Assembly: GCA_050302175.1 (NCBI GenBank)
Contig: JBNLAN010000016.1
Coordinates: 6,957-70,956, forward strand
Source: Mariprofundaceae bacterium
GTDB taxonomy: Bacteria > Pseudomonadota > Zetaproteobacteria > Mariprofundales > Mariprofundaceae
DNA: 64,000 nucleotides
Direction: 5' to 3'
Shown: piece by piece, positions 27,140 through 54,552 of the stretch
Numbering within the stretch: the first letter of the stretch is position 1
Layout: every line of letters begins with the position of its first letter
Notes under the pieces: generated by a model
The model's database searches: none
The model's input: only the letters and a program-made list of their open reading frames with translations
What the model was told of the DNA's origin: nothing
Translations under genes and position numbers: made by a program

Positions 27140-28987
27140 ATGACCAAAAAGCCCCATAAACTGGCAATTTCCGAGCTGGCCCTGCGTGATGGGCACCAGT
27201 CGCTGTTGGCAACCCGCATGCGCCTTGATGACATGCTGCCGATCTGCGAAAAGCTCGACCAAGTCGGCTTCTGGTCGATTGAGGCCTGGGGTGGTGCCAC
27301 CTTCGACACCTGCCTGCGTTACCTGAAGGAAGGGCCATGGCTGCGCTTGCGTGAGCTGGATAAGGCGCTACCCAACACACCGATCCAGATGCTCTTGAGG
27401 GGCCAGAATCTTCTGGGCTACCGTCATTATGCCGATGATGTCGTCAAAAAATTCGTCGATATGGCGGCCGCCAATGGTGTGGATGTATTCCGTATCTTCG
27501 ATGCCATGAATGATTTACGAAATGTTCGCGTTGCCATCAAGCAGGTCAAAGCCAACGACAAACATGCCGAAGGCTGTATCTGCTACACCACCAGTCCAGT
27601 ACACACCCTGCCCCACTTTATCGATCTCGCGAAAGGGCTTGAAGATATGGGCTGCGATACCATCGCCATCAAGGATATGGCGGGCCTGCTCACGCCCAAA
27701 TCAACCAAGGAGCTGATTACTGCGCTGAAAAATACTGTCGATATTCCGTTGCATTTGCACTGCCATGCAACTGCAGGCATGGCGGAACTGGTGCAGTGGG
27801 AAGCTGTGCATGCCGGTTGCGATATTATCGATACCGCTATCAGTCCGCTGGCGGGTGGCACCTCACATGCGCCGACCGAAGCGATGGTTGCAGCATTCTC
27901 CGGCACTGAATTCGACACAGGACTCGATCTCGACCTGCTTCAGGATATCGCCAGTTATTTCCGAAAAATTCGCAAGAAATATAAACGATTTGAATCTGAT
28001 TTCACTGGCGTGGATACGCGAGTACAAAGCAATCAGATCCCCGGAGGCATGATCTCGAACCTTGCCAATCAGTTGAAAGAGCAAGGCGCACTCGATCGCA
28101 TGGATGAGGTTTTGGAAGAGGTTCCGCGCGTTCGCAAGGACTTCGGCTATCCACCACTGGTCACACCGACCAGCCAGATTGTCGGCACACAGGCAGTGCT
28201 TAATGTCGTCTCCGGCAAAAAATACAAGGTGATCACCAACGAGACCAAGGCATATCTGGCCGGACAGTATGGCAAGGCACTGGGTGAGATTAACCCGGAC
28301 GTACAAAAGCTCGCACTGGGTGATGAAGAGCCGATCAATGTGCGTCCGGCAGACCTGCTGGAGAATGAACTCGACCAGCTCACCCGTGAAGTCGGCGACA
28401 AAGCAACCTCCGTGGAGGACGTGCTCTCCTATGCCATGTTCCCTACCATTGCACTCGAATACTTCGAGGAGCGTGAGTCGGGCAACTTCAAACCGGAACC
28501 ACTGGATGAACCGGAAGCAGCCCCTGCCACATCAGCAACACCTGGGCTGGCGCCGACTGAATTTAACGTCACTATTCACGGTGAACAGTATCATATCAAA
28601 ATCGAGGGGACCGGCCATCGCAGCGAAGAAAATCGCCCCTTCTACGTGAAGGTTGATAATGTGCTAGAGGAAGTGTTTATCGAGACACTGACCGAAGTAG
28701 TGCCGACTCTGGATGGGCGAGATATCGATGCTAACAAGGCTTCAAAAGGCTCCAAGCGCCCAAAGGCGCGTTCCGATAACGATGTGACCACGCCGATGCC
28801 GGGCCGTATTGTCTCCATCAACGTTAAAGCAGGTGATACTGTCAAGGCTGGTGACATGGTACTGGTGGTGGAAGCGATGAAAATGGAGAACCCGGTACAC
28901 GCGCCGGTCTCCGGTACTGTCGAGACTATCCATGTGCAGGTTGGCGACAACGTCAACCCGGACGAATGCCTGATGCAGATCGCCTGA
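27140..28987 (+). CDS. pycB: carboxyltransferase (5S) + biotin-carrier subunit (pyruvate carboxylase subunit B / oxaloacetate decarboxylase alpha-like)
   Basis: 615 aa with a TIM-barrel carboxyltransferase N-terminus (LRDGHQSLLATRM) and a C-terminal biotinyl domain with EAMKMEN. Confidence 0.88.
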   Translation: MTKKPHKLAISELALRDGHQSLLATRMRLDDMLPICEKLDQVGFWSIEAWGGATFDTCLRYLKEGPWLRLRELDKALPNTPIQMLLRGQNLLGYRHYADDVVKKFVDMAAANGVDVFRIFDAMNDLRNVRVAIKQVKANDKHAEGCICYTTSPVHTLPHFIDLAKGLEDMGCDTIAIKDMAGLLTPKSTKELITALKNTVDIPLHLHCHATAGMAELVQWEAVHAGCDIIDTAISPLAGGTSHAPTEAMVAAFSGTEFDTGLDLDLLQDIASYFRKIRKKYKRFESDFTGVDTRVQSNQIPGGMISNLANQLKEQGALDRMDEVLEEVPRVRKDFGYPPLVTPTSQIVGTQAVLNVVSGKKYKVITNETKAYLAGQYGKALGEINPDVQKLALGDEEPINVRPADLLENELDQLTREVGDKATSVEDVLSYAMFPTIALEYFEERESGNFKPEPLDEPEAAPATSATPGLAPTEFNVTIHGEQYHIKIEGTGHRSEENRPFYVKVDNVLEEVFIETLTEVVPTLDGRDIDANKASKGSKRPKARSDNDVTTPMPGRIVSINVKAGDTVKAGDMVLVVEAMKMENPVHAPVSGTVETIHVQVGDNVNPDECLMQIA

Positions 28988-29006
28988 TTGTAAATTAGCT
29001 TTCAAC

Positions 29007-48647: not shown

Positions 48648-48728
48648 GCGCCGGATTATGCATAGATGGATTCATGCATGCACCCGGCAATCACAAGAAA
48701 TAGTATACTGTCCCCGATTTTCCCTCAT

Positions 48729-48783
48729 CATTAAGTCAAACTACCAATACCGATTCAACATTCAAGACCTGACCCCTTCTACA
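48729..48783 (+). repeat. 55-bp repeat, copy 1
   Basis: cattaagtcaaactaccaataccgattcaacattcaagacctgaccccttctaca matches 50389-50443 at 54 of 55 positions, in the same orientation. Confidence 0.9.
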
Positions 48784-48788
48784 CTTAA

Positions 48789-49142
48789 TTACTTGTCTGA
48801 CACAGAACGTTCGGATGAAATGGCTTCATTACGCTTAATTTCATCCACAGAAAGAAGCGAAATACTTCTGTAGAGCGTGATCAAAAGAAGAATATATGAG
48901 ACAAAAAATGCCAGCACGCCAAGAAGGAATAATTGCAATATAGACTCGGCACTAGTGTAAAATCTAAAAAGTAATAAATTGACGTTCAAGCATAGAAAAA
49001 AAAATAATGCAAAGTCTCTTGTATTCATAGACCTAGAAATCACCCTGTTACATGACTTGCATAAAACTCCTTTATTACTGTAAAGCAGTGGAAGATAATC
49101 CCGAATAGTTATCTTTGAATCACAATTTGGACAGTTTTTCAT
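48789..49142 (-). CDS. small zinc-ribbon membrane protein (hypothetical)
   Basis: MKNCPNC...CKSC followed by two TM helices. ATG 49142 overlaps the stop of the upstream ORF (ATGA). Very AT-rich. Confidence 0.45.
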   Translation of the reverse strand: MKNCPNCDSKITIRDYLPLLYSNKGVLCKSCNRVISRSMNTRDFALFFFLCLNVNLLLFRFYTSAESILQLFLLGVLAFFVSYILLLITLYRSISLLSVDEIKRNEAISSERSVSDK

Positions 49143-49573
49143 TTCTTCCCCCAGCAAACCGTTGAGAGCTTTAATAGTTGGCTAAATAGAATTACCCAAA
49201 AAATAGCAAGAACCGCCGCAGCACATGCCATGGCAGCAACGTTTGGAAAAAACAATATAGGTATCAGGGCAGATAGGAACAACATTGGAAGTACCACGGT
49301 CAATACAATTTCAGGCCAGTTATCACAATTCATTGAGCTGAGAACATCACTGGAAAGGAGAATCACTGTTGCAATCATGGATAGAATTATGGCTAGTTCA
49401 AAATATATCGACGGTATTAATAATACGAATCCAATGAAAAAAAGGAGGCCTGCTATCCAACCGCAATTCTCACAACCTCCACCATTCAATCCACAGCTTC
49501 CTCCACCATTTAGTCCACCAACCAGCCGATATTGAATTATACTCATGGGGTCAGGTCTTGAATATTGAATCAT
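49139..49573 (-). CDS. small Gly-rich N-terminus / 4-TM membrane protein (hypothetical)
   Basis: ATG 49573 is preceded by GGGAGGGG and overlaps the transposase stop (ATGA). GLNGGG is repeated twice, followed by four hydrophobic helices. ATG 49546 is an alternative start. Confidence 0.45.
   Translation of the reverse strand: MIQYSRPDPMSIIQYRLVGGLNGGGSCGLNGGGCENCGWIAGLLFFIGFVLLIPSIYFELAIILSMIATVILLSSDVLSSMNCDNWPEIVLTVVLPMLFLSALIPILFFPNVAAMACAAAVLAIFWVILFSQLLKLSTVCWGKK
49547..49571 (-). repeat. inverted 25-bp copy of the repeat core
   Basis: ggggtcaggtcttgaatattgaatc is the reverse complement of 48752-48776 with one mismatch. Confidence 0.85.
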
Positions 49574-50391
49574 CGCCCCTCCCACGCCTTGATCACCTTA
49601 CTCACCAGAGAATAATGAACCCCTGCATAATCGGCTATCTCACGCATGCTATAACCCTGACCCCTGTACGCCTCGCTCATCCATGCTCCCCGCTCATGCT
49701 CCTCATTCACCAGGTCTTCAAGGCTCCGCCGTGCAATATGTTTCTGCATTCTCGGTACTTCAGACCCTGCCTTCACTTTCTTTTGCGCACCCTCACGAAA
49801 CTCATCGCTTCCCAGAACATTCGATCCCGCCGATCCCAGCAAAGGTGCATCCGTCAGCGGAGCATCAGCTACATACTCCCTATAACGTTTTCGACTGCCT
49901 CCAAACTGTTCCAACACCCAATCCACACTATCGAACTTGCGTGCCTTTTCCGTGCCAGCCGTAGCCCGATAGCTGCTCCAACGCCACGCCTCAACATCCT
50001 TGACCATGCCAGCCGCAACAGGGTTACGCACAATGTAACGGCAAAGCGACAACAGATGGGCATCTTTCTCCACCAAAATGGCCTTGTAGCGACCCTGAAA
50101 AACATGCCCGACCCTTGAGTACTTCCGGTTGAACCGCTGCGTATATACCCCATTCAACTGGCGCATTCCCTGACTCAAATTACCTTTGGGGGTTTCGATC
50201 ATCAGATGGTAATGGTTCGTCATCAGGCACCAGGCATGGCAAACCCAACCCAACCGATCTATCACAAGAGTCAGCACTTCAAGAAACATCTCCCTGTCTT
50301 CATCAGACACGTAAATGTCCTCTCTCCCATCCCCTCGGGCTGTCACATGATAAACAGCACCCGGATATTCAATTCGCAACGGTCTCGCCAT
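49570..50391 (-). CDS. IS200-like Y1 tyrosine transposase (REP-associated/RAYT-like) with C-terminal HTH
   Basis: 273 aa with the YHVTARG start block, HUH motif in NHYHLMIE and catalytic-Tyr block LCRYIVRNPV. The C-terminal HTH-like block is YSMREIADYAGVHYSLVSKVIK. Its GC content is higher than that of the surrounding island. Confidence 0.85.
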   Translation of the reverse strand: MARPLRIEYPGAVYHVTARGDGREDIYVSDEDREMFLEVLTLVIDRLGWVCHAWCLMTNHYHLMIETPKGNLSQGMRQLNGVYTQRFNRKYSRVGHVFQGRYKAILVEKDAHLLSLCRYIVRNPVAAGMVKDVEAWRWSSYRATAGTEKARKFDSVDWVLEQFGGSRKRYREYVADAPLTDAPLLGSAGSNVLGSDEFREGAQKKVKAGSEVPRMQKHIARRSLEDLVNEEHERGAWMSEAYRGQGYSMREIADYAGVHYSLVSKVIKAWEGR

Positions 50392-50443
50392 TAAGTCAAA
50401 CTACCAATACCGATTCAACATTCAAGACCTGACCCTTTCTACA
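50389..50443 (+). repeat. 55-bp repeat, copy 2 (includes the transposase start codon)
   Basis: See copy 1. It is followed by a 12-bp tandem duplication ctttctacatcg x2 (50435-50458) and a degenerate core copy ttcaacctgaccccttc (50474-50490). Confidence 0.9.
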
Positions 50444-50502
50444 TCGCTTTCTACATCGTTAAACCCGGGCTAGTTCAACCTGACCCCTTCCTTCTATGTT
50501 TA

Positions 50503-50856
50503 CTATTTCCGAGAATAGGCTGAAGCTATCAATTTATGGAGTGAGACATATGTGATAAAAACACCAGCTAAGAGCAATATATTCGAGATTTTATCACTAA
50601 CGACAATCGAAGCAGACACCAATACAACCCACAGGAAGAAAGAAGTATATAAACATTTATTCTTTTTATTAGTCTTCCTTGAAAAAATAAAAACTAACAA
50701 CCCTATTAAGACGAAACATATTGAGATAACCACAAGAATCGTAAGTTCAACCGTCCATAATAGGTTTTGAATTCTATAACCAACAAAGTTGAGAATAAAC
50801 GTAACAATAGATGCTAAAAAAAGAGAGATTGATAATGTCAAAGAATCCATTTTCAT
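50503..50856 (-). CDS. small 3-4-TM membrane protein (hypothetical)
   Basis: ATG 50856 overlaps the stop of the upstream ORF (ATGA). 117 aa, almost entirely hydrophobic helices. Very AT-rich. Confidence 0.45.
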   Translation of the reverse strand: MKMDSLTLSISLFLASIVTFILNFVGYRIQNLLWTVELTILVVISICFVLIGLLVFIFSRKTNKKNKCLYTSFFLWVVLVSASIVVSDKISNILLLAGVFITYVSLHKLIASAYSRK

Positions 50857-51488
50857 CTTTTCTGCCTCTGATTTTGCTGACAAGAATAAGCAACTAATGC
50901 GAATGCTGAAATCGCTAGAACTACTGCCAATAGTGCGACAATAAATGCGCCTCTCATTAATGCGATTTGCGCAAAAAGACCTAATATGAGGAGTAATGGG
51001 AAAATCAGTGAAATATTTACAAGCATACAATCTTCATAACTTTTATAAACCACCGTTAATTCGCCCGCATAAGCCGTGCCACTTATCATTTGGAATATTT
51101 GATTCAGCACTGATCCTATCCAGACAGATATATTATGGTCTGTTCTCCCCCCATTCATGCCATCACTAATACGGTATTGCCCATCGCCTGTTATCGGATC
51201 GACAATAGCATACCCCGCCCCTGTCCAGCCCCCTACTGTAAGGTTTGAAGCGTGTGCAGTGACTTCCTTGCCTGCCGCAACTGCGGCATTGATCTCTCCC
51301 ATTGCGAATGGAGAAAGGGCAAGTCTTGGAATGACTGTTGCAGCGTTCTGTTGATTGATCTGATAGACAGGCATCCCCTGACTGGCTGCCACGCTAAACA
51401 GCTTCATGGTTGAAACTGCCTGGATCGGCGCTGCCGATGTGCTGAACATCTGCTCCGGAATCTGATGCTCTAGGGAAGATGAAAGCAT
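50853..51488 (-). CDS. hypothetical protein: soluble domain resembling the C-terminal module of large transglutaminase-associated proteins, plus 2 TM helices
   Basis: 211 aa. The block GMPVYQINQQNAATVIPRLALSPFAMGEINAAVAAGKEVTAHASNLTVGGWTGAGYAIVDPITGDGQYRISDGMNGG resembles, from memory only, a conserved module near the C-terminus of very large bacterial proteins. No SD at ATG 51488. Confidence 0.45.
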   Translation of the reverse strand: MLSSSLEHQIPEQMFSTSAAPIQAVSTMKLFSVAASQGMPVYQINQQNAATVIPRLALSPFAMGEINAAVAAGKEVTAHASNLTVGGWTGAGYAIVDPITGDGQYRISDGMNGGRTDHNISVWIGSVLNQIFQMISGTAYAGELTVVYKSYEDCMLVNISLIFPLLLILGLFAQIALMRGAFIVALLAVVLAISAFALVAYSCQQNQRQKR

Positions 51489-51524
51489 ACCAACTGCACG
51501 GAGGAAAAAGGGGACGCTACCCTT

Positions 51525-52058
51525 TTATTCATTTGTGTCCCCCGAAATAACAATACGATCAAAGTGAATGAGCAGCTCTCTAAAATAGTCCTTCAACCTC
51601 GGAGTATTCGCTTTTTCCTGCAATTCTTCCTGAGAAACCTTTGGCATGTTTAATTGTTCATACTTGGCGAGTTTTGGATTAAGAAATATCTCCTCTGCTA
51701 GAGGGTTTATACCATAGTGATCAATCTTCTCTATTTTATCGTCATTTTTCTCTAATGACACTGATATCATGAGACCCCTAAACAATTCTAATTCTTCAAT
51801 GTTTACATGTGCAGTTTTTTGTTGATTTACCCAATTATATATTTTATCCAAATCTATTTTTTCTACTGAGTTGACCTTGCTATCATATCCCATTGATTTA
51901 ACGATTTGCTGAGTCTTCTCTATACTGCTAAAGGCATGAAGTTTGTCTTTAGGTAAAATGGGCAACAAATGATAATCTTGACCAGTAGATTCATCCATAC
52001 CATATATTATCGGCACATAATGCACTTTATTTCCACGCGTAATTTCAAATACATACAT
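51525..52058 (-). CDS. hypothetical cytoplasmic protein
   Basis: 177 aa from ATG 52058 (MYVFEITRG...). Very AT-rich, with no TM segment or signal peptide and no recognised family. Confidence 0.45.
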   Translation of the reverse strand: MYVFEITRGNKVHYVPIIYGMDESTGQDYHLLPILPKDKLHAFSSIEKTQQIVKSMGYDSKVNSVEKIDLDKIYNWVNQQKTAHVNIEELELFRGLMISVSLEKNDDKIEKIDHYGINPLAEEIFLNPKLAKYEQLNMPKVSQEELQEKANTPRLKDYFRELLIHFDRIVISGDTNE

Positions 52059-52315
52059 TAAGCATTCCTCATAGCTTAAAACGACACTCAGCAACATCCG
52101 GCGGGAAAGGATCACCAACGTTTCTTACAGCCGGACGTGAAATTAACCCGGGAGCACATGGAACAGGTTGAGGGCAACCCACTTCAAATGGAAGAAACCG
52201 TGGATGGAGTTGGGAATACCCCGAGCTTTTGCACTGGTAAATACATTGATTCCAACCTGCTGGAGCCCAAAATCAAAGGGATAAGGGGTCAGAGCCGTTA
52301 TTCGCCTATTAACCA

Positions 52316-53326
52316 TTATTTGCCGTCGACCTTTTGTTCCATACGCTTAATCGCATTGGCATATACAGGGCTTTTGTTCACCATATCGGCAACGCGATAT
52401 TCACGCAGCGCCTTACTCCACTGACCGGCCTCCTCATAAATCCTGCCGTTATTATAAGATGCACTTGCCCGAATAGCCGAAGCCGATTCCCCTGATGCCA
52501 ATCCGATTGCTTTGTTATTTGCCCAGATTGCATCCTCTATATGCCCGGCCTTTTGGTAGGCCAGGCCCAGGTTGCCAAATGCCTGAGCATAAGTTCCATC
52601 GAGCTCGACCGCTTCACGATACAGACGAATCGCCTCATCGTAATTGTGGGCACGATATGCTTTTTCGCCTTTTTTGTTCAATTCCCGCGCAGCTTCCGGA
52701 TCGTTTCGATAATATGAAATGACCTGCGGTGCCTTGCCATCCACGCCCCCCAAACTCAAATTACTCATATTGGAGGCCGGATCGAATGGCACGTCACCCA
52801 GCTTGTTAATGTCTTCGATTTCACCACTTTCGGTTATCGCGAAAACTCTCCAGAAATTGCCGGCTGCCATAAATTCCGGTTCCGGCCAGGGGCCGACCGG
52901 AGGCACGGCGTAGCTCTTGATAAGCTTATCCCCGACATAAACAAATACCTTAGCCTTGCTACTTATAAGCACGCGCCAATTTGACTCATACTTGCTCGCA
53001 TAATCATGCACGGCATAGATATAACGCTGACCATGACGCCTGCGATTAATCGTAATCGTTTCAGGCCCGTACCCATTGGTATCGTTCACATCCAGTGACG
53101 CGCCATCTCCTGTCATGGCATTGAAGTAAACGTGGTTACCCGGATAAAAAAGATGAGCATCAAGATTCCATGGCTTGTCACTCCAGGTCAGAACGATCCG
53201 CATACCGTCCAGATTGTTCTTCCCCTTCTCTGCGGCACTCGAAGCCTGAGCGTTGATTAGTGAAGCAACCGCACTTCCAGCGACGCACAGGAAAGCAAAG
53301 AATATGGCTTTTTTAAAATGAATCAT
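52316..53326 (-). CDS. secreted YfaP-like (DUF2135) domain + TPR-repeat protein
   Basis: Signal peptide from ATG 53326. The block LRIVLTWSDKPWNLDAHLFYPGNHVYFN...LDVNDTNGYGPETI matches the DUF2135 pattern as I recall it. The C-terminal TPRs include YDEAIRLYREAVELDGTYAQAFGNLGLAYQKAG. Confidence 0.65.
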   Translation of the reverse strand: MIHFKKAIFFAFLCVAGSAVASLINAQASSAAEKGKNNLDGMRIVLTWSDKPWNLDAHLFYPGNHVYFNAMTGDGASLDVNDTNGYGPETITINRRRHGQRYIYAVHDYASKYESNWRVLISSKAKVFVYVGDKLIKSYAVPPVGPWPEPEFMAAGNFWRVFAITESGEIEDINKLGDVPFDPASNMSNLSLGGVDGKAPQVISYYRNDPEAARELNKKGEKAYRAHNYDEAIRLYREAVELDGTYAQAFGNLGLAYQKAGHIEDAIWANNKAIGLASGESASAIRASASYNNGRIYEEAGQWSKALREYRVADMVNKSPVYANAIKRMEQKVDGK

Positions 53327-53374
53327 TATCCCCTCACATTGTTTTCCATTACAGAGCATCAATGGTCAATGGGA

Positions 53375-54424
53375 TCAGAGCCCTTTTCCACCAAACGAAA
53401 TCGACTGCACAAATTTCGTGAACAGAGCGCGATCCGGCTCGCTATAGTCCACCTTGGAGAGATGCAGATCCACCCAGACTCCATCCACGACATAGTGCGC
53501 ATTCATATTGCGCTGTTTCAGATCCATGCCCTTCACCTGCCCCAATGTATATTCAGACACAAACACATCGCCGACTTTGGAGCTCTGCCAGTCACTCCTG
53601 CCGGAGCCACCGGACTTCAGTCTGCCCAACAGAAAATCCCGGCACTCTTTGCTGTTGCGGCATTTACGCGCTGGTTCAAAGTTGAACGAAACATTTAACC
53701 CGCTCTTTTTATCGGTCAGGAAATAATACGGGCGGGCATTGTCTTCCATCTCCACATGGAGCCCGCCTTTCGGAAATTCAAGAAACGACTCTTTGGTGGG
53801 AAGAGTGATTCGATATCTGGATTTAATTTGCTTCAATGAAGAGATACCACCCTCAACATGAGTCGCAGCTTTGATCACCTTCAGGCCTGAATCCACGATA
53901 TCACTTTGTCCATCATTGGTGAGAATCGTGAAAGTGATAAGCAGCTTGCCGGTGCGAGCCATCCCCTGAGTCAGATATTTGTATTCCCCCGGTTTGGGGG
54001 CACGATCAGTTGCTGTGAAATAGTAGCCTCTTGCACTTTTGCTTTTGAGCTCTTTCACCCGGATATTTTTTTCAACTGCACTGGCCTCAGCCTCTTTGGC
54101 AGTTGCTGCCACCTGCGCCTGCATAAATTCCGCACCGGGTAACTCTTTTCCAGGCGGTGCCCACATCGGTGTTACAAGAATAGTGAAACCAGCCCCTGAT
54201 CTGGGCGAAAAGGTAATGGTCGGGTAAGGCGAGTCATCCGGTTGTTCGGATGCAGCCTTCCATGCCTTCGGCACCGCAAACTGGACTGTGCCATTTCCTT
54301 GTAGCTGGAACTCGCGATTCTCTGTGCCTTTGGCATACGCAGGCATAGAGGCCGCTGCAAACAGCGATAGCAACACCGCACCAAACAAGCATCGCATAGC
54401 GAGTGCAATATTCTTTTCTCTCAT
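53375..54424 (-). CDS. hypothetical secreted protein
   Basis: 349 aa from ATG 54424, which has AGGAG upstream. Signal peptide LLSLFAAASMPAYA. No family recognised. Confidence 0.5.
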   Translation of the reverse strand: MREKNIALAMRCLFGAVLLSLFAAASMPAYAKGTENREFQLQGNGTVQFAVPKAWKAASEQPDDSPYPTITFSPRSGAGFTILVTPMWAPPGKELPGAEFMQAQVAATAKEAEASAVEKNIRVKELKSKSARGYYFTATDRAPKPGEYKYLTQGMARTGKLLITFTILTNDGQSDIVDSGLKVIKAATHVEGGISSLKQIKSRYRITLPTKESFLEFPKGGLHVEMEDNARPYYFLTDKKSGLNVSFNFEPARKCRNSKECRDFLLGRLKSGGSGRSDWQSSKVGDVFVSEYTLGQVKGMDLKQRNMNAHYVVDGVWVDLHLSKVDYSEPDRALFTKFVQSISFGGKGL

Positions 54425-54552
54425 GATTGGCTCTCCTCTCCCATGGGCTCCCATCAACTCCAGTTGTCAATCGCCATTCCAGAGGTTTAACTGATTCCGG
54501 TCAAGAAATTTTCCCAGCCGCATATAGCAGAAACAATCCTTGCTGGACGCAT

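Follow-up and report, generated by a model that had tools for sequence, protein, structure and literature searches.

A probable TIRtron with a stray left end beside mnmA in a Mariprofundaceae genome

The stretch of DNA analysed here, 64,000 nucleotides (nt) long and hereafter called the window, belongs to a Mariprofundaceae bacterium (GenBank assembly GCA_050302175.1, contig JBNLAN010000016.1, positions 6,957 to 70,956 of the forward strand); coordinates below are those of the window unless another contig is named. The genome assembly measures 2.2 Mb in 39 contigs and is 88% complete. Close to the tRNA-modification gene mnmA, the minus strand carries tnpA (49570..50391), encoding a 273-amino-acid (aa) Y1/HUH tyrosine transposase with a C-terminal helix-turn-helix (HTH)-like helical tail. 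The gene lies between two 25-bp terminal inverted repeats (TIRs), and a further copy of its left end stands by itself at 48729..48783. With good confidence, we read the locus as a TIRtron of ~0.89 kb (49547-50436), in which a TIRYT gene is enclosed by the two TIRs, accompanied by a stray left end. It is a new example of a named but biochemically unstudied element type, not a new kind of element.

The product of tnpA matches the Pfam family Y1_Tnp (E = 2.2e-13) and narrowly passes the NCBIfam model REP_Tyr_transpos (84.4 bits against a cut-off of 80). It contains the motifs NHYH (residues 59-62; HUH), FQG (98-100) and RYIVRNP (118-124; Tyr). When the protein is aligned with 14 homologues of related genomes and with 20 more drawn from a protein collection, residues H60, H62, F98, Q99, N123 and P124 are invariant and Y119 is nearly so, bearing out the HUH and Tyr motifs named in the initial annotation of this DNA. 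The gene encodes an intact Y1/HUH transposase with its catalytic residues present. The AlphaFold model of the protein (pLDDT 79) finds its best fold match among PDB structures in 4ER8, the E. coli TnpA-REP (E = 2e-8, TM score 0.77 over the chain), followed by TnpA of ISDra2, IS200 and IS608; 4ER8 was also the sole hit in a sequence search of the PDB (E = 0.006). Residues 242-271 show weak similarity to HTH_38 (E = 3.8e-4) and HTH_23 (E = 4e-3), both below Pfam cut-offs; the model contains a confident helical bundle at residues 224-272, and tnpA homologues bear precomputed HTH_23 or HTH_38 hits. The gene is single-copy, representing the sole PF01797 match in the assembly, and its protein family comprises more than 8000 homologues at E < 1e-20, with source labels such as "transposase [Mariprofundaceae]", "Ghiorsea bivora" and "REP element-mobilizing transposase RayT".

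The names TIRtron and TIRYT were introduced by Di Nocera, De Gregorio & Rocco 2013 (BMC Genomics 14:522; PMC3733652), who described TIRYT genes flanked by TIRs. Both these authors and Quentin et al. 2018 (PMC6006769) keep TIRtrons apart from REPtrons, the elements associated with repetitive extragenic palindromic (REP) sequences; the latter study places most TIRYTs in subclass 2.1 of TnpA-Y1 and reports no REPs for this subclass. The signature of subclass 2.1 in Table 1 of PMC6006769 comprises NH[YF]H, FQ, Y..NP, the protein length and an HTH tail, and the table equates this subclass with Group 1 of the REP-associated tyrosine transposases (RAYTs) of Bertels et al. 2017 (PMC5581495). Because the motifs, length and HTH-like tail of the Mariprofundaceae protein agree with this signature, we assign tnpA, on sequence grounds, to TnpA-Y1 subclass 2.1, i.e. 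RAYT group 1 or "TIRYT". The likeness extends to other traits of TIRtrons: the protein is of the RAYT-like HUH/Tyr type, falls within ~240-280 aa and ends in a putative HTH, the TIRs are non-palindromic, lie at fixed distance and have an outer GGGGWSAS (here GGGGTCAG), and the TIR family has a low-to-moderate copy number with single and dimeric copies. We found no defining difference at this locus.

The right-end TIR (RE; GGGGTCAGGTCTTGAATATTGAATC) occupies 49547..49571 and overlaps the tnpA stop codon by 2 nt, while the left-end TIR (LE; GATTCAACATTCAAGACCTGACCCT), an inverted match to it, lies at 50412..50436 with its outer end at 50436. The pairing of 49548-49571 with 50412-50435 is 96% complementary, as is that of 49547-49571 with the additional copy at 48752-48776, in agreement with the inverted 25-bp core with one mismatch reported initially. 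GGGGWSAS is the motif common to TIRYT-flanking TIRs (PMC3733652); here, RE starts with GGGGTCAG and LE ends with CTGACCCT (AGGGTCAG, one mismatch). The conserved part of the TIRs is their outer 14 nt, GGGGTCAGGTCTTG or, on the other strand, CAAGACCTGACCCC, which we predict to be the conserved recognition sequence. Within a 25-nt arm, the remaining 11 nt on the inner side vary among elements and agree between both ends of one element.

Neither the 25-bp cores nor the 55-bp unit that contains the left-end core fold better than shuffled sequences on either strand (minimum free energy 0 to -3 kcal/mol, z +0.5 to +1), and a GTAG/CGTC tag is not present beside the core. Genome-wide, the 25-mer occurs in 6 copies at up to 4 mismatches, 3 of them local and 3 at sites with 3 mismatches. 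The 14-mer CAAGACCTGACCCC, allowing up to 1 mismatch, has 10 sites in the 2.2-Mb genome compared with 0 for a reversed control; the repeats are therefore more numerous than chance would give. Those outside the locus all lie between genes or at the ends of genes, frequently within variable regions such as toxin-antitoxin genes and contig ends. No inverted doublets of the TIR were found in this genome. Since the repeats do not self-fold, lack the GTAG tag and number only ~10, they are TIRs and not REPs. A literature search for the TIR sequence itself returned only chance hits in unrelated papers.

These data bear directly on the first alternative, a classical REPtron, in which a domesticated RAYT would keep a genome-wide REP/REPIN population (REPINs being inverted REP doublets) with the 25-bp cores as members. 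The narrowly passed RAYT model, the single-copy gene, the inverted flanking repeats with ~7 dispersed intergenic solo copies and the REPIN-like inverted doublets of relatives, described below, all speak for it. However, the folding test already largely refutes this explanation, as the core is not palindromic; nor does the core carry a GTAG/CGTC tag. Moreover, the 14-mer has 10 copies only, no doublet exists in this genome, subclass 2.1 is the class in which no REPs were found (PMC6006769), and relatives often have several copies of the gene, incomplete copies and copies at contig ends. We consider a REPtron quite improbable. Accordingly, the initial proposal of a RAYT with its cognate REP/REPIN family stands as regards the RAYT branch, the single-copy gene and the inverted dispersed repeat, and fails as regards the nature of that repeat, whose genome-wide count came to ~10 without inverted doublets instead of the tens to hundreds named there as the mark of a REP/REPIN family.

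Comparison with the E. coli REPtron (TnpA-REP, RayT/YafM, 4ER8) leads to the same distinction. Among solved structures, that of its transposase has the most similar fold (TM 0.77 over the 165-aa chain); the enzyme shares the HUH motif, the Tyr and Y..NP, and is encoded by a single-copy gene with inverted repeats on both sides. E. coli REPs, however, are imperfect hairpins with a 5' GTAG, present in hundreds of copies, whereas the repeats described here are unstructured singly, have no GTAG and number ~10; the protein also differs from E. coli TnpA-REP by an extra 110-aa tail with the putative HTH. A flanking-oligomer frequency of ~10 fits the mean of 12 given for RAYT Group 1 (PMC5581495).

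No direct target duplication accompanies the element: the local flanks TACTCAT and TTCTACA differ, and none was found in 9 full-length elements, as expected for a Y1 enzyme. Among 148 gene-less TIR doublets, described below, a direct repeat of at least 4 nt occurs in 2, and an inverted extension into the flanks of at least 4 nt (4-12 nt) in 19. A classical DDE-type insertion sequence (IS) or miniature inverted-repeat transposable element was rejected on these counts (direct target-site duplication in 0/9 full elements and 2/148 doublets). Tn3-type inverted repeats, which also start with GGGG, were ruled out by the lack of a DDE transposase and of target duplication, and an integron attC by the lack of R''/R' core sites. 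We also discarded the idea that the solo cores represent conserved N-terminal peptides (M..RPDP) following a ribosome-binding site; their similarity comprises a DNA-level TIR and remnants of the tnpA 3' end.

The same layout, GGGGTCAGGTCTTG, ~31 nt, ATG to stop codon, ~10 nt and CAAGACCTGACCCC, is shared by homologues of 42-82% identity from at least 10 genera and 3 metagenome contigs; homologues of 42-75% identity come from other genera of the same family, and those of 72-82% from the three metagenome contigs. The distance from TIR to ATG equals 31 nt in 13 of 20 homologous elements. The closest homologues (72-82%) have both TIRs in three unrelated contexts, beside uvrB, an M48 peptidase gene and others, and are found without the small membrane-protein open reading frames (ORFs) that adjoin the element in the window. 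In loci L003, L005, L007 and L009 the tnpA frame enters the right TIR and stops at the TGA inside the 14-mer (..ARNKT* from GCGCGAAACAAGACCTGA), so that the TIR supplies the stop codon. Enrichment of the 14-mer extends to 45 of the 61 family genomes, with up to 24 copies against 0-2 for the reversed control. In relatives, tnpA homologues are often multi-copy, fragmentary, at contig ends or on 1-3-kb metagenome contigs, and N-terminal-only fragments are frequent. Their location at contig ends and on short contigs indicates that TIRs or elements break assemblies; copy numbers from drafts are therefore lower bounds.

Several relatives also possess gene-less 70-nt doublets, GGGGTCAGGTCTTG-N42-CAAGACCTGACCCC, which fold as near-perfect hairpins (-37 kcal/mol, z = -11). 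When one genome per species was scanned, the exact inverted pair GGGGTCAGGTCTTG...CAAGACCTGACCCC, 35-60 nt apart, appeared on at least 120 contigs (L063-L182). Among the matches listed, these contigs belong to Actinomycetota, Nitrospirota, Acidobacteriota, Planctomycetota, Chlorobi, Elusimicrobia and several proteobacterial classes, the inner arms covary for a further 10-15 nt, and 'AT' often precedes GGGG. The doublets of relatives resemble REPINs (Bertels & Rainey 2011, PMC3116915) in being an inverted pair that forms one long hairpin with correlated arm changes; they differ in that no doublet is found in the present genome, the arms are TIR halves, and the copies are single or in low double digits. 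An Rfam search of the locus and nine doublet loci returned nothing real, only sub-threshold microRNA-like hairpin noise.

One such 70-nt doublet lies in frame within a gene for a U32-peptidase-like protein (L198 in G010:C6, L200 in G035:C8 and L199 in G071:C118), where the reading across the doublet is ..SIVNK[RGQVLNGAPPDFSSDSYAIQDLTP]FIEVEYFAHG. The gene is uninterrupted in nine other genomes, including congeners (empty alleles L189-L197). In the filled alleles, the 6-8 nt outside the TIRs are mutually complementary (AATAAAC/GTTTATT versus AATAACC/GGTTAT), and the changes K to N and F to V consequently occur together.

The 55-bp sequence at 48729-48783, which the initial annotation described as recurring at 50389-50443, does so in direct orientation with 54 of 55 positions identical (98.2%), and forms the core of a longer direct repeat of 60 nt (48724-48783/50384-50443, 95%). 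Copy 2 includes the tnpA start codon (ATG at 50391-50389, minus strand) and its 20-nt leader, likewise as described. Copy 1, the solo left end (LE'; 48729..48783), is composed of an ATG, the leader with a putative promoter, the TIR (48752-48776) and 7 flanking nucleotides, TTCTACA (48777-48783), identical to those beside the real left end. It is located 82 nt upstream of the mnmA start and is oriented to mnmA as the left end is to tnpA. No tnpA remnant was detectable beside LE'. Its ATG opens a 19-codon ORF (48672-48731, minus strand; MMRENRGQYTISCDCRVHA*) whose end is 24 nt short of the mnmA start; this ORF is probably meaningless, but would be translated if a leaderless mRNA were made from LE'.

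The left end has been duplicated in a comparable way in L003, where a 282-nt unit stands in tandem, in L007, with a 104-nt copy 1.38 kb off, and in contig C33 of genome G000 (28446-28994). The C33 case is a 276-nt tandem duplication (97.8%), each unit of which joins the 3' portion of a HigA-like antitoxin gene to a solo TIR (ATGCATGATTGCAAGACTTGACCCC) and 12 flanking nucleotides, with the novel junction 12 nt outside the TIR. In these three, the outer endpoints are situated 7-12 nt past the TIR. Duplicated units of 26-60 nt, consisting of the TIR and inner-side DNA, were seen in L005, L012 and L037, and 6-12 nt separate the outer endpoint from the TIR in all the duplications, LE' included. Because such duplications and N-terminal tnpA fragments recur in relatives, we read LE' as a one-ended, truncated copy of the left end and not as an att site.

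An att-like origin had nevertheless been the other option of the initial annotation, and it underlies the second alternative: a composite or circular 1.66-kb cassette (tnpA, RE and two membrane genes) that would have recombined into a pre-existing left-end site, leaving the 55-bp repeats. The DNA at issue, between LE' and RE (48784..49546, minus strand), is AT-rich (GC ~0.35-0.43) and contains two small hydrophobic ORFs, 48789-49157 and 49139-49546, the latter read from an ATG abutting RE. Both are putative membrane-protein genes; the 122-aa ORF gave a weak match to the zinc-ribbon model TIGR04104, below its cut-off. The direct repeats bracket precisely this 1.66-kb unit, and site-specific strand transfer is possible for HUH enzymes (PMC3479197). 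Against a cassette, the closest homologues carry both TIRs in their three unrelated contexts without any such cargo, a search of 60 family genomes gave no homologue of the two cargo ORFs, the AT-rich composition extends outside the unit (50500-52300), and the only other contig with an identical protein is the same DNA broken at the repeats. Left-end duplications also recur around different DNA. This explanation is very improbable: the two ORFs do exist, as annotated, but their membership in a 1.7-kb unit is not supported, and 48784-49546 is neighbouring island DNA rather than a demonstrable part of the element. That other contig, a 1673-nt Logan contig at first considered a possible circle, proved to be a unitig that ends where k-mers turn non-unique inside the two 55-bp repeats.

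The weakest alternative is an ordinary insertion sequence of the IS200/IS605 family (IS608, ISDra2), which would share the Pfam Y1_Tnp match, the catalytic fold of IS200, IS608 and ISDra2 TnpA, the lack of target-site duplication and presumably the single-strand chemistry; it is extremely improbable, as the Tyr motif is Y..NP (class 2) and not Y...Q (PMC6006769), the ends are inverted and without subterminal hairpins, where this family has same-orientation subterminal hairpins, identical multi-copy elements and often tnpB, no tnpB is present, and the 273-aa protein with its HTH-like tail is twice the length of IS200 TnpA (~150 aa). Motif and end structure already contradict it, and the picture expected for an ordinary IS by the initial annotation, with the core nowhere else and many identical units, is not what the genome holds: the core occurs elsewhere too, and tnpA is present once.

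At the outer end of LE lies a tandem duplication, CTTTCTACATCG x2 (50435..50458), made of the last 2 nt of the TIR and 10 flanking nucleotides. It is exact and has no rotational slack, confirming the 12-bp repeat noted before; the degenerate core seen near 50474 is also real and extends over ~50474-50500. This third copy of the TIR end and flank, TTCAA(-2 nt)CCTGACCCC + TTCCTTCTA (50474..50500), reads TTCAA--CCTGACCCCTTCCTTCTA, compared with CATTCAAGACCTGACCCTTTCTACA at the left end. Reiterations of this kind are a property of the family. Among ~400 distinct TIR ends in the collected loci, tandem reiteration was found at 34/400 as exact copies (8.5%) and at 52/402 with at least 85% identity (13%), against 1.4-1.5% at random positions (P ~1e-15 for the excess at TIR ends). 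At 50 of 402 TIR ends, a second (T)GACCCC is followed by the same flank, the class to which the local degenerate copy belongs. The 12-bp tandem repeat and the degenerate core are thus part of a family-wide end stutter.

Exact duplications start in two clusters, at about -7 (TGACCCC+X) and about -2 (CC+X), both directly after a GACC of AAGACC^TGACC^CC. The start site at -7 is a C^T step, and C^T is the dinucleotide cut by E. coli TnpA-REP (PMC3479197); this cleavage dinucleotide is also the main stutter start of the present family, GACC^TGACCCC.

The left end may contribute a promoter. Reading on the minus strand, a putative promoter at 50392..50425 would comprise a -35 element TTGAAT (50420-50425), partly formed by the inner end of the conserved 14-mer, a 16-nt spacer and a -10 element TAGTTT (50398-50403), which the ATG follows at a distance of 6 nt. 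A TAnnnT hexamer is found at exactly -12..-7 from the ATG in 14 of 20 left ends, compared with at most 1 of 20 at other offsets tested from -16 to -7; the TTG of the 14-mer sits at -34..-32. No Shine-Dalgarno sequence is evident, and a generic sigma-70 scan reported no minus-strand promoter at the left end. This positional conservation, on which the proposal rests, suggests that the left end carries a putative promoter giving rise to a leaderless mRNA. LE' holds the same promoter-like elements directed at mnmA, and any effect on that gene is a matter of speculation.

As far as PMC3733652 and PMC6006769 were read, the full 14-nt TIR with its spread among phyla, the putative leaderless promoter, the solo left ends and the quantified stutter go beyond what they describe.

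How such an element might work can be outlined by analogy with TnpA-REP and IS608 TnpA. The enzyme would be expected to form a 5'-phosphotyrosine link as it nicks single-stranded DNA at the TIRs or close to them, and to rejoin strands afterwards. In single-stranded DNA, the two TIRs can pair into one long hairpin whose loop is the gene or, in the gene-less 70-nt doublets found in relatives, a stretch of 22 nt. The excess of duplication junctions at TIR ends is an indirect hint that the tnpA protein may bind and cleave TIRs. The stutter could arise through a nick, strand-displacement synthesis of a few nucleotides and re-ligation of the 5'-tyrosyl strand. Alternatively, the other strand might be nicked at a point 6-12 nt outside the TIR and the polymerase might halt soon after entering the TIR, a version that would account for the long duplications too. 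Either way, tandem or nearby one-ended copies would be the outcome of nicking, copying and re-ligation, and LE' on the one hand and the 12-bp stutter with the degenerate core on the other may be the long and short forms of one by-product. An element of this kind may still be active.

The data show directly the gene class, the intact catalytic residues, the architecture and conservation of the TIRs, the lack of folding in single TIRs, how many copies exist and that duplications are in excess at TIR ends, whereas the promoter, the nick positions, the nick-extend-rejoin mechanism and current activity are inferred. Several points weigh against the TIRtron reading. The mechanism is by analogy throughout: no biochemistry on any TIRYT was found in the searched literature, where the term occurs only in the descriptive studies PMC3733652 and PMC6006769. 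The hairpin and GTAG needed by E. coli TnpA-REP are both absent from the single TIR, and the 12-bp stutter of this locus begins at -2, where the step is C^C and not C^T. The HTH matches of the tnpA protein remain under Pfam cut-offs, the draft assembly (88%, 39 contigs) may under-assemble repeats, making copy counts lower bounds, and the origin of LE' is not reconstructible, with no empty site found among 8 relatives at mnmA.

A broader proposal joins these elements together, and we offer it tentatively, considering it rather unlikely as a whole. The scars at TIRs, both the short stutters after either GACC and the longer duplications such as LE', would be a first, purely genomic read-out of TIRYT action, i.e. 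a nick at the TIR end, limited copying and 5'-tyrosyl re-ligation; the left end would be a portable leaderless promoter, with LE' now driving or modulating the essential tRNA-modification gene mnmA; and bacteria at large would share the 14-nt TIR as a recognition site, the hairpin doublets of which can persist even in frame inside genes.

The surroundings of the TIRtron belong to an AT-rich accessory island at ~48650-52300, as judged by composition (GC 0.34-0.43, versus 0.53 in tnpA and 0.55 in the genome); an AT-rich accessory island is situated between mnmA and a dppB-like gene (48650-54430). As the AT-rich composition runs on outside the 1.66-kb unit (50500-52300), we suggest that the TIRtron landed inside a pre-existing island. 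None of the 8 relatives compared shares a gene with the island upstream of mnmA, and synteny is broken in 8/8. In 3 of these 8, the neighbours of mnmA are homologues of genes on contig C35 of genome G000 (53-55 kb); the region upstream of mnmA is therefore a rearrangement point in the lineage, at which an empty site is not definable. The island also contains a 211-aa ORF (50853-51488) whose N-terminal part is soluble (..GGWTGAGYAIVDPITGDGQYRISDGMNGG..) and whose C-terminal part has membrane helices; it has no Pfam or NCBIfam match and looks like a piece broken from some larger secreted protein.

Taken by itself, the locus is ordinary, being one more TIRtron in a genome of the Mariprofundaceae type, i.e. 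of iron-oxidising Zetaproteobacteria. For annotation, it serves as a warning that the label "REP element-mobilizing transposase RayT" does not imply a REP population. Its value is that of a clean example of a very widespread class, in which a single-strand HUH/Y1 enzyme goes together with unstructured inverted repeats. Several regularities run through the family, namely an identical TIR of 14 nt, an ATG at a fixed spacing of 31 nt with a -10 box, stutters that start after GACC, duplications with endpoints 6-12 nt outside the TIR and doublets whose flanks extend the palindrome; from these, concrete oligonucleotide substrates and predicted nick sites are available to anyone beginning biochemical work on such enzymes.

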